Shown one piece after another: positions 53,127 to 57,657 of a stretch of DNA of 64,000 nt. This DNA comes from a virus. Lineage: Duplodnaviria; Caudoviricetes. The number at the start of each line of letters is the position of its first letter. Within the stretch, counting starts at the first letter, position 1. The stretch is taken from the IMG/VR virus record IMGVR_UViG_3300044712_000786, positions 32,001 to 96,000 of that record; one strand, given 5' to 3'. Below the pieces are notes generated by a model. It ran no database searches, was not told the DNA's origin, and worked only from the letters and a program-made list of their open reading frames with translations. The translations under genes were made by a program, and so were the position numbers.

Positions 53127-53215
53127 TGGTACCAACGACTGGATTCGAACCAGCAAGGCTTTTAATGGCCGAGGGATTTTAAGTCCCTTGTGTAAACCAA
53201 TTCCACCACGTTGGC
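53127..53215 (-). tRNA. trnL: tRNA-Leu (anticodon UAA), CCA encoded
   Basis: GCCAACG/CGTTGGT acceptor, AGGGA-CTTAAAA-TCCCT anticodon arm, long variable arm, GTTCGAATC T-loop, ACCA end. Confidence 0.93.
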
Positions 53216-56012: not shown

Positions 56013-56054
56013 ATGTTTTGAACAAGTTCAAAACTAATCAGTCTTTTTAAGAAG

Positions 56055-56435
56055 TCAAGCCTTCTCGAAGACAAAGCTTCTATTTCCTTTATCGTTAATG
56101 AAAGCAAGTGCTTTATCAGCATCATCAAAGATAGGGAACCAGTCAGGGTCATTGTCATCGCAGTAGAAACTCTTTTGCACCCTGAACTTATATTTCTTAG
56201 CTTCTAATTCAGCTAAAGATAAGCTCTTATATATTTGCTGAGTAACCCAGTATTCCACAATGGGTTCAGGACCGAATACAACATGAGCTAATTCGGCCAT
56301 GGTCTTATGTCTGGAGTTACCGAAGCGCCTCCAATAAGTTCTCTCATGCAAGATAGGCTCCCCCTCAGGGGTGACATAGTTTGCTGCTTCCCAACCCCGA
56401 CCAGCAAATACAGGTTCGCTATGTAATTCTATCAT
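56055..56435 (-). CDS. Hypothetical early protein
   Basis: Own leaderless promoter. Confidence 0.7.
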   Translation of the reverse strand: MIELHSEPVFAGRGWEAANYVTPEGEPILHERTYWRRFGNSRHKTMAELAHVVFGPEPIVEYWVTQQIYKSLSLAELEAKKYKFRVQKSFYCDDNDPDWFPIFDDADKALAFINDKGNRSFVFEKA

Positions 56436-56484
56436 ATTTCGAGAATAGAGAGATTTTTTAAGAAGTCAACATTAGTTCAAAACG

Positions 56485-56739
56485 AAAAAACCCCGCCAGT
56501 TTCCCAGCGGGGTAAATACCCTTGGTTCAGGTCATGACTCCCGAAGCAAGGTTATCTCAGGCAGCATCCAAGGCGAGATATCCAACATCGCCTTCATGGG
56601 TTAGCCGTTGGCGGCTGGGTCTGCCATATTGAAAATGATGGGTGGTTCAGCCCGAGTCTCTACAACCTAGGTCAATGGCCACTTCCCTAGAATTGCTGCA
56701 TGGTTTCAACAGCCGATTTATGCTATCTTTGCGCCACCC
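56485..56739 (-). ncRNA. Candidate structured RNA C
   Basis: Promoter (-35 56768-56773, -10 56746-56751), +1 GGGTGG pairing with CCACCC, nested hairpins, terminator 56485-56513, no ORF over 21 aa found. Confidence 0.55.
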
Positions 56740-56769
56740 AAAGACAGTCTAGCAAGTATTTTTCCGTTG

Positions 56770-57006
56770 TCAACCTCGAAACAATCCGAAAAGAATAAGC
56801 AGTCCTATTATAATCCAGCCTATGATATTTAGGCCAGCACCTAAACCCTTGGCTTGATTCAGAAAATCTTTAGCGTTATCGGACATCCGAGGATTATCCG
56901 TTACCGTTATACGCCATTTCTCCTTGTCAGATAAAGGTCTAGGCGTAACAGATTTCTTATATTTCTCTGCCATTTCCCTAGCGAATTGTCGTTCGCCTTC
57001 TGTCAT
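56770..57006 (-). CDS. Small protein with C-terminal transmembrane helix
   Basis: NIIGWIIIGLLILFGLF; start set by promoter geometry. Confidence 0.6.
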   Translation of the reverse strand: MTEGERQFAREMAEKYKKSVTPRPLSDKEKWRITVTDNPRMSDNAKDFLNQAKGLGAGLNIIGWIIIGLLILFGLFRG

Positions 57007-57062
57007 ACCCACCATGCTACATTAAATTTTAAAATTGTCAACTCGTTTGAACTAGTTCAAAC

Positions 57063-57353
57063 AAAAGGACCCCCGACAGGGTAATTACTCCCATCGGGGG
57101 TTTTGGCCTATCTATCTTTGCGCGAAGACCTTTCAGCCAGTGTTATTAGGCGTTTTCTCGCCCGTCCATTCCCCTCATAACGCATCGAGCTAAGGACGCT
57201 ACGGCATCGCGGGTTATCTTTCGGACTTTTCTCTTCACAGTGCGGCAACCATGACCTTCAGGAAGTTTTTTGTTTGCATTTTAACAAGAACCTATAGTGC
57301 TCTCATCGGGCCGCTAGAGAATCATATCTCGTTTCCCATGCCATTGCTGGCAC
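57063..57353 (-). ncRNA. Candidate structured RNA D
   Basis: Promoter (-35 57382-57387, -10 57360-57365), +1 GTGCCA-GCAA-TGGCAT hairpin, terminator 57063-57104. Confidence 0.5.
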
Positions 57354-57369
57354 ATCCTAAATCTATCAG

Positions 57370-57657
57370 TTATTTTCCAACAGTCAAGCCCCACTTCAGC
57401 AATTCTTGCCACGAATCAAACTCAAAAATCTTAAATGCACCATTTTCGAGGAGCATTGTCGCAAGGCCCTGAATAGACGGCGAGGTAAATGCAGACCAAC
57501 TATTACCCGTGGTTAAATAATAAAAGCAGAAGGCTTTGTATTCTGTCCCGTTGTGGGTAATAAAACCCGCACGAGAATCCGTAGTAACCCCGTAATATTT
57601 GTCAGTGGAGACTTTATCGGGGGTGATTTCGACACATGCTTTAACAACTTGTTTCAT
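57370..57657 (-). CDS. Hypothetical early protein
   Basis: Own leaderless promoter. Confidence 0.7.
   Translation of the reverse strand: MKQVVKACVEITPDKVSTDKYYGVTTDSRAGFITHNGTEYKAFCFYYLTTGNSWSAFTSPSIQGLATMLLENGAFKIFEFDSWQELLKWGLTVGK

Follow-up and report, generated by a model that had tools for sequence, protein, structure and literature searches.

Type I 3'-UTR small RNAs such as DapZ and MicL are transcribed from a promoter of their own that lies inside the upstream gene, and they share their terminator with that gene. Orphan non-coding RNAs are a known product of large phages, and almost none of them has an established function. In the jumbo phage PA5oct, the ORF-less transcripts ncRNA001-004 have lengths of 236-619 nt and no sequence relatives (PMC7318152), and intergenic sRNAs have been described for phage 201phi2-1 (PMC11512511). 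Long GC-rich intergenic regions reveal structured non-coding RNAs in AT-rich genomes, which is the principle of the GC-IGR approach (PMC11109978). The locus of the present study, an ORF-less unit at positions 56485-56739 of the minus strand (unit C; its transcript is termed RNA C), resembles the RNAs of PA5oct and 201phi2-1 in that it belongs to a large phage, contains no plausible ORF, spans a few hundred nucleotides and has no assigned function.

Unit C lies in a 64-kb window, the whole stretch of DNA analysed, which corresponds to bases 32001-96000 of an IMG/VR virus record. The record comprises 202,704 bp, carries direct terminal repeats and has a whole-genome GC content of 39.4%; positions are those of the window unless stated otherwise. 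A search of 50,697 phage records revealed no cultured relative of the phage, the best terminase match being 28% identical.

Promoter, terminator and coding content of unit C

The unit sits within a block of short minus-strand genes, in an ORF-free gap at 56436-56769 that is one of 17 gaps in the genome of at least 170 nt without a 45-aa ORF. Unit C and its neighbours comprise the following features.

56770..57015, minus strand: 81-aa ORF upstream of unit C; hydrophobic helix at the C-terminus, own terminator lacking, no family match
56746..56773, minus strand: promoter of unit C, consisting of TTGACA (56773-56768), the 16-nt spacer ACGGAAAAATACTTGC and TAGACT (56751-56746)
56739, minus strand: predicted transcription start, the 7th base after the -10 element and first G of GGGUGG, placed by register
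56485..56513, minus strand: intrinsic terminator of unit C, stem 56513-56490, U-run to 56485
56435-56055, minus strand: 126-aa ORF downstream of unit C, served by a separate family promoter (56469-56442) that has the ATG at +1

The promoter of unit C is of the sigma-70 type, TG precedes its TAGACT element, and its spacer carries the A-tract of a promoter family that is described by the pattern TTGACN-N4-RAAA-N8-TANNNT. The genome contains 47 such sites (46 on the minus strand), compared with 0-1 sites in shuffled genomes (n=20). An ATG is located exactly at the 7th base after the -10 element in 28 of the 47 family promoters, and this register implies that mRNAs of this phage would be leaderless. 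The unit C promoter has the correct family spacer (16 nt) and the A-tract but features GGG at the 7th base after the -10. We placed +1 at 56739 because the 28 sister promoters have their ATG in that register, and the distance from there to the end of the U-run at 56485 predicts an RNA of 253-255 nt. The -35 element contains the TGA stop codon of the upstream 81-aa ORF; nearly every promoter in this phage is embedded in its upstream gene.

At the other end of the unit, a stem of 10 bp with seven G-C and two G-U pairs is closed by a GAAA loop and followed by the U-run. The fold of this terminator has a z value of -4.59, and none of 200 shuffled sequences was as stable. It is strand-specific, as the two G-U pairs turn into mismatches on the plus strand, and it ranks second in strength within 20 kb; only a handful of strong terminators are present among the roughly 30 early units. 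No other terminator was found between 57015 and 56513, and since the 81-aa ORF lacks a terminator of its own, the unit C sequence presumably is also the 3' UTR of the 81-aa mRNA. Unit C thereby shows the arrangement of a type I 3'-UTR sRNA, with a promoter overlapping the upstream coding sequence and a shared terminator. The promoter of the 126-aa gene begins 15 nt past the U-run, and because this gene has its own promoter, unit C is not needed as its leader. Neither a promoter nor a terminator is present on the plus strand at unit C.

All six reading frames are closed across the unit, with stop codons every 20-30 codons in each of them. The longest ORF on the RNA C strand encodes 21 amino acids and starts with an ATG at RNA position 143 (56597), i.e. 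142 nt from +1 and within a predicted three-way junction. The body of RNA C has a GC content of 50.9%, which is the highest of the early region and in the top 0.6% of the windows of the genome; coding DNA of the same phage also has stretches that are as GC-rich. A preliminary description of the locus, made from the letters alone and naming no strand, had called it a clean promoter-terminator unit with no ATG at +1, and this is confirmed for 56485-56739 of the minus strand. Its reading of the product as an RNA and not a protein is likewise well supported in silico by the family promoter with GGG at +1, the strong, strand-specific terminator, the lack of any ORF above 21 aa and the raised GC content.

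The proteins of 126, 81, 77 and 95 aa encoded in the neighbourhood have no match in Pfam, PHROG or PADLOC. The C-terminus of the 81-aa protein is strongly hydrophobic (GLGAGLNIIGWIIIGLLILFGLF), and the protein probably is a small tail-anchored membrane protein. For the 126-aa protein, a single-sequence AlphaFold model was unusable at a pLDDT of 36, and no homolog beyond the protein itself was found among 5.8 billion proteins; an identical 126-aa protein is encoded on two other contigs. A second cluster of ORF-free gaps lies outside the window at genome positions 136500-152000 (104500-120000 in window numbering). It comprises about ten gaps with lengths of 170-430 nt, of which some reach a GC content of 49-53%, and a family promoter at 119273 (window numbering) leads to a sequence with a tRNA-like ...CCTACCA 3' end. 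This cluster probably represents a second RNA-gene region of the phage.

Predicted fold of RNA C and known RNA families

Minimum free energy (MFE) and centroid predictions divide the body of RNA C into three modules and a linker.

56640..56739, minus strand: module 1, 100 nt, in which P1 (GGGUGG/CCACCC) begins at +1; an extended rod in the MFE structure
56626..56639, minus strand: A/U-rich linker AUCAUUUUCAAUAU, 14 nt, predicted to be unpaired (centroid)
56560..56625, minus strand: module 2, 66 nt, a three-way junction of GGCAG/CUGCC, AGCCG-CCAA-CGGCU and AAGGCGA/UCGCCUU
56520..56551, minus strand: module 3, a hairpin of CCUUG-C-UUCGGG / CCUGAA-C-CAAGG with the loop AGUCAUGA

The preliminary description had proposed a structured RNA with two defined domains. 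The complementary segments that it named are all present in the sequence. In plus-strand letters, those of the first domain are GGGTGG 56640-45 / CCACCC 56734-39, CTAGG 56667-71 / CCTAG 56686-90 and GCTG 56695-98 / CAGC 56710-13, and those of the second are GGCAG 56560-64 / CTGCC 56621-25, AGCCG 56603-07 / CGGCT 56612-16 and AAGGCGA 56571-77 / TCGCCTT 56588-94. In the first domain, P1 and the CUAGG helix recur in the MFE and centroid structures, whereas other pairings take the place of the GCUG/CAGC arm; the domain-1 fold as proposed reaches -18.1 kcal/mol and is 11.5 kcal/mol worse than the MFE structure of -29.6 kcal/mol. The latter forms a rod with the helices UCGGCU/GGCUGA, UGCAGC/GUUGUA and CUAGG/CCUAG and a 17-nt internal loop, and its stability (z -1.04) is within chance. 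The three-way junction of the second domain corresponds to module 2, which is present in both the MFE and the centroid structure (z -1.97; 8 of 200 shuffles as good), although the stability of the body as a whole is no better than chance. Module 3 (-13.4 kcal/mol, z -3.08, MFE frequency 0.86) was absent from that description and is added by both predictions. The z values of the sub-domains (-1.0, -2.0 and -3.1) are biased, as the boundaries were set at helix ends.

For the whole unit a z value of -2.44 was determined, most of which comes from the terminator. The body without the terminator had a z value of -1.03, and 29 of 200 shuffles were as stable. In comparison with 2025 genome windows of the same length, regressed on GC content, RNA C deviated by a residual of -1.0 sd and 14% of the windows were as good; MFE frequency and ensemble diversity were unexceptional (p 0.09-0.44). 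RNA C does not exceed shuffled sequences or the genomic background in stability or definedness, the generic test for a conserved structured non-coding RNA. The minus strand folds better than the plus strand by ~10 kcal/mol. The two-domain picture of a structured RNA finds no support in these analyses: fold energy and well-definedness are at chance level, and neither an Rfam match nor a homolog was found. The secondary structure of RNA C as given here is a reasonable prediction and not a demonstrated feature.

The Rfam search, a check that had been suggested together with this picture, yielded no Rfam 15 family at gathering thresholds for unit C; the sole match at these thresholds in the window is a tRNA at 53130-53215. 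A permissive scan of 56400-57400 gave best scores of 10-18 bits, compared with thresholds of 33-88 bits, and E values of at least 0.49. The families covered include riboswitches, self-cleaving ribozymes, 6S, tmRNA, RNase P and group I/II introns as well as HEARO, GOLLD/ROOL, raiA and OLE. Because no ribozyme family matched, there is no pointer to self-cleavage. ARAGORN detected no tRNA or tmRNA in the region of unit C, with only spurious permuted-tmRNA calls at the 70% threshold, and a tRNA-like nature of domain 1 was rejected, since it has neither a D nor a T arm. Tandem repeats with a score of at least 30 and internal direct repeats were likewise not found in unit C. Mimicry of a CRISPR repeat by the terminator was also rejected: the likeness exists by eye only, and the G-U pairs of the hairpin fit the minus strand.

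Relatives, neighbouring ORF-less units and a local palindrome

Unit C has no paralog in its own genome, and blastn against the 50,697 phage records gave no match. Two covariance models were built, one for module 1 (R1) and one for modules 2 and 3 (R2), which both detect the window itself, with scores of 129 and 159 bits. IMG/VR queries with the 126-aa and the 81-aa protein retrieved no loci; a search of IMG/VR and JGI metagenomes with the DUF932 protein gave only loci of 40% identity or less, and the terminase gave 54 loci at ~56% identity. The five largest records of these terminase relatives contained no blastn or covariance-model match to unit C and lacked the promoter family. By scanning IMG/VR with the promoter pattern, we found the closest complete relative (G006; IMGVR_UViG_3300027573_000779), a record of 208,933 bp with a terminase of 63% identity. 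G006 uses the same promoter family, whereas the more distant terminase relatives do not, and it has DUF932 (60%) and five further early genes in common with the present phage. The 126-, 81- and 77-aa genes around unit C are missing from G006, no ORF-free gap precedes its DUF932 gene, and a search of the whole record with R1, R2 and nhmmer gave no match for units C and D or RNA E (see below). A wider alignment-based DUF932 scan of 80 loci (1.1 Mb) revealed no match to unit C, and the promoter family only in G006. When IMG/VR and 185,579 prokaryote genomes were scanned for the structure pattern, only chance matches came up. Judged by these searches, unit C is lineage-specific, and with no homolog found, conservation and covariation lend no support to a function of the unit.

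Two regions of G006 are mentioned here as observations in their own right. At 181062-181251 (minus; L105:1062-1251), a family promoter is followed by an ORF-less stretch of ~105 nt with a GUCUUCGGGGAAGAC hairpin at +1 and another, terminator-like one immediately ahead of the following ATG; this stretch may represent either a 5' leader or a small RNA, and its sequence is unrelated to unit C. The tRNA region of G006 (L096:16950-18600; Gly, Leu and Gly tRNAs) lies within more than 1 kb of ORF-poor, hairpin-rich sequence. It recalls the ORF-less RNA that heads the tRNA operon of the present phage, with no detectable similarity.

Two further ORF-less elements of the present phage are unit D, which is the neighbour of unit C, and RNA E, which heads the tRNA operon. 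Short sequences connect them with unit C.

56723..56734, minus strand: 12-mer GCGCAAAGAUAG, shared with unit D (57112-57123)
56608..56618, minus strand: CCAGCCGCCAA, perfect complement of nt 21-31 of RNA E (53658-53648)

In pairwise comparisons, the 12-mer common to units C and D was matched in 3 of 300 shuffles, and the pairing site for RNA E (nt 122-132 of RNA C) in 2 of 300. Opening both sites of the C-E pairing would cost 17.7 kcal/mol, which leaves a net energy of only -4.1 kcal/mol. When all 18 ORF-free gaps were compared with each other, 12 pairs shared an 11-mer or longer, compared with 8.1 expected (p 0.15), and a motif network of C, D and E was rejected for this lack of enrichment. 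We take the C-D and C-E links as leads, suggested by short sequence matches, and not as evidence. Units C and D were also rejected as paralogs, as they have only a 12- to 16-mer in common and no wider homology. Antisense targets of RNA C beyond chance were not found in the phage genome, and targeting of the 5' ends of early mRNAs was rejected since 90% of shuffles do as well. That RNA C represents a new structured functional class, and that C, D and E form a GC-rich, early, ORF-less trio which acts together on a host or phage partner during takeover via the 12-nt motif and the 11-bp C-E site, appears doubtful to us.

The surroundings of unit C contain a 16-bp palindrome, TTTGAAC-NN-GTTCAAA, of which the genome has only two copies, 1029 bp apart (56017-56032 and 57046-57061). 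They flank the block of the 81-aa gene, unit C and the 126-aa gene; one copy is located just upstream of the -35 element of the 81-aa gene promoter and the other between the -10 element of the 77-aa gene and its ATG. Past the terminator of unit C, at ~56473-56480, there is also a half-site, TTTTGAAC. In G006 the palindrome is absent. It resembles an operator at which a local dimeric regulator would bind, or else the two ends of a cassette that was inserted. Units C and D have similar 3' junctions (56473-56499 and 57053-57079), which comprise the terminator foot and TAGTTCAAA and are 74% identical over 27 nt, and this likeness suggests that a module of terminator, operator and promoter may have been reused.

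Interpretation and comparison with described RNAs

We propose that unit C encodes a lineage-specific, trans-acting, stand-alone early non-coding RNA of ~255 nt, and we assign this reading a probability of roughly 0.5. The host RNA polymerase would transcribe RNA C at an early stage of infection, starting at the stereotyped sigma-70-type family promoter; the RNA would be released at the strong intrinsic terminator and would presumably accumulate as a discrete species. It may then act in trans on a protein or RNA of the host or of the phage, to which it would bind via unpaired stretches; the internal loop of module 1 (17 nt) and the A/U-rich linker (14 nt) are the proposed candidates for these stretches, and the 3' hairpin together with the terminator might guard it against decay.

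The main rival to a trans-acting non-coding RNA is a functionless remnant or an insulator. The unit would then be a cassette whose ORF was lost or replaced, any RNA made from it would have no role, and the strong terminator would shield the next promoter from the read-through of roughly 30 tandem early promoters. This is a real possibility, even if we think it unlikely to be correct. The fold of RNA C is at chance level, unit C is absent in the nearest relative as part of a lineage-specific block of the 81-aa gene, unit C and the 126- and 77-aa genes, and the succession of terminator, TTTGAAC motif and promoter recurs after unit D, which suggests insulated, separately regulated promoters. However, a 30-nt terminator alone would insulate, and a family promoter with 226 nt of GC-rich, ORF-free body would be superfluous for this purpose; moreover, no trace of a decayed reading frame and no protein- or DNA-level similarity to anything was found. 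Transcription of the unit could also serve the 126-aa gene in cis, with RNA C as a riboswitch or attenuator that senses a signal and sets the read-through of the terminator. The order of promoter, structured region, terminator and ORF is that of a classical attenuator, but the 126-aa ORF is provided with its own family promoter and an ATG at +1, which is not the arrangement of a riboswitch- or attenuator-controlled gene. No Rfam riboswitch or leader family matches, no antiterminator alternative is obvious by inspection, and a read-through transcript would lack a purine-rich ribosome-binding site before the 126-aa ATG. We therefore consider a cis-regulatory leader to be quite improbable.

A small-protein gene, with the 21-aa peptide or the product of another mini-ORF as its purpose, is very improbable in our view. 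The 21-aa ORF exists, and the missing Shine-Dalgarno sequence is not decisive, since the late genes of the phage also have only weak Shine-Dalgarno motifs. Early genes of this phage are, however, leaderless with their ATG at +1, whereas the 21-aa ORF starts far downstream in the predicted junction; it has neither a purine-rich motif upstream nor a counterpart in G006. It is extremely improbable that the unit functions at the DNA level, as a replication-origin transcript or a protein-binding region, or through a feature of the plus strand. In other phages, promoter units without an ORF can serve to prime replication, as at the origins of T4 and T7, and an operator-like palindrome flanks the block. 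Against such a role, the GC skew shows no turn at unit C, the GC content of the region is high and a terminator, not an unwinding element, closes it, and the plus strand lacks both promoter and terminator and forms the less stable fold.

With a trans-acting non-coding RNA as the preferred reading, unit C can be compared with the systems named at the outset and with one further type of locus. Type III toxin-antitoxin loci of the ToxIN kind have the same order of promoter, non-coding RNA, terminator and small ORF. Unlike ToxI, RNA C contains no tandem direct repeats of ~34-45 nt; unlike ToxN, CptN or TenpN, the 126-aa protein encoded downstream matches no defence or toxin model in Pfam, PHROG or PADLOC, and its ORF has its own promoter. 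The likeness to the candidates of the GC-IGR approach consists in the 334-nt ORF-free gap and in a body of 51% GC in a genome of 39%; such candidates are, however, accepted only once homologs show covariation, and unit C is without homologs. With type I 3'-UTR sRNAs, unit C has in common a promoter over the last codons of the upstream gene and a 3' end formed by a hairpin and a U-tail. RNA C is longer (255 nt vs roughly 80-300 nt), and a search of the phage genome yielded no seed or target for it beyond chance. Besides, this layout is not specific to unit C, as nearly all promoters of the phage lie in upstream genes.

The orphan RNAs of PA5oct and 201phi2-1 have no sequence relatives outside near-identical isolates, and RNA C is likewise an orphan; blastn detected no sequence similarity of unit C to any of them. 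Those RNAs were defined by RNA-seq and are thus shown to be expressed, whereas RNA C is predicted from its promoter and terminator. Conversely, the PA5oct ncRNAs lack recognisable promoters, whereas unit C is preceded by a textbook member of the promoter family of its phage. Unit C is a single-genome candidate that adds one entry to the known category of orphan phage RNAs and opens no new one. Its unusually clean predicted ends, together with the very regular code of the early promoters in its genome, would make unit C easy to test as a representative of this category.
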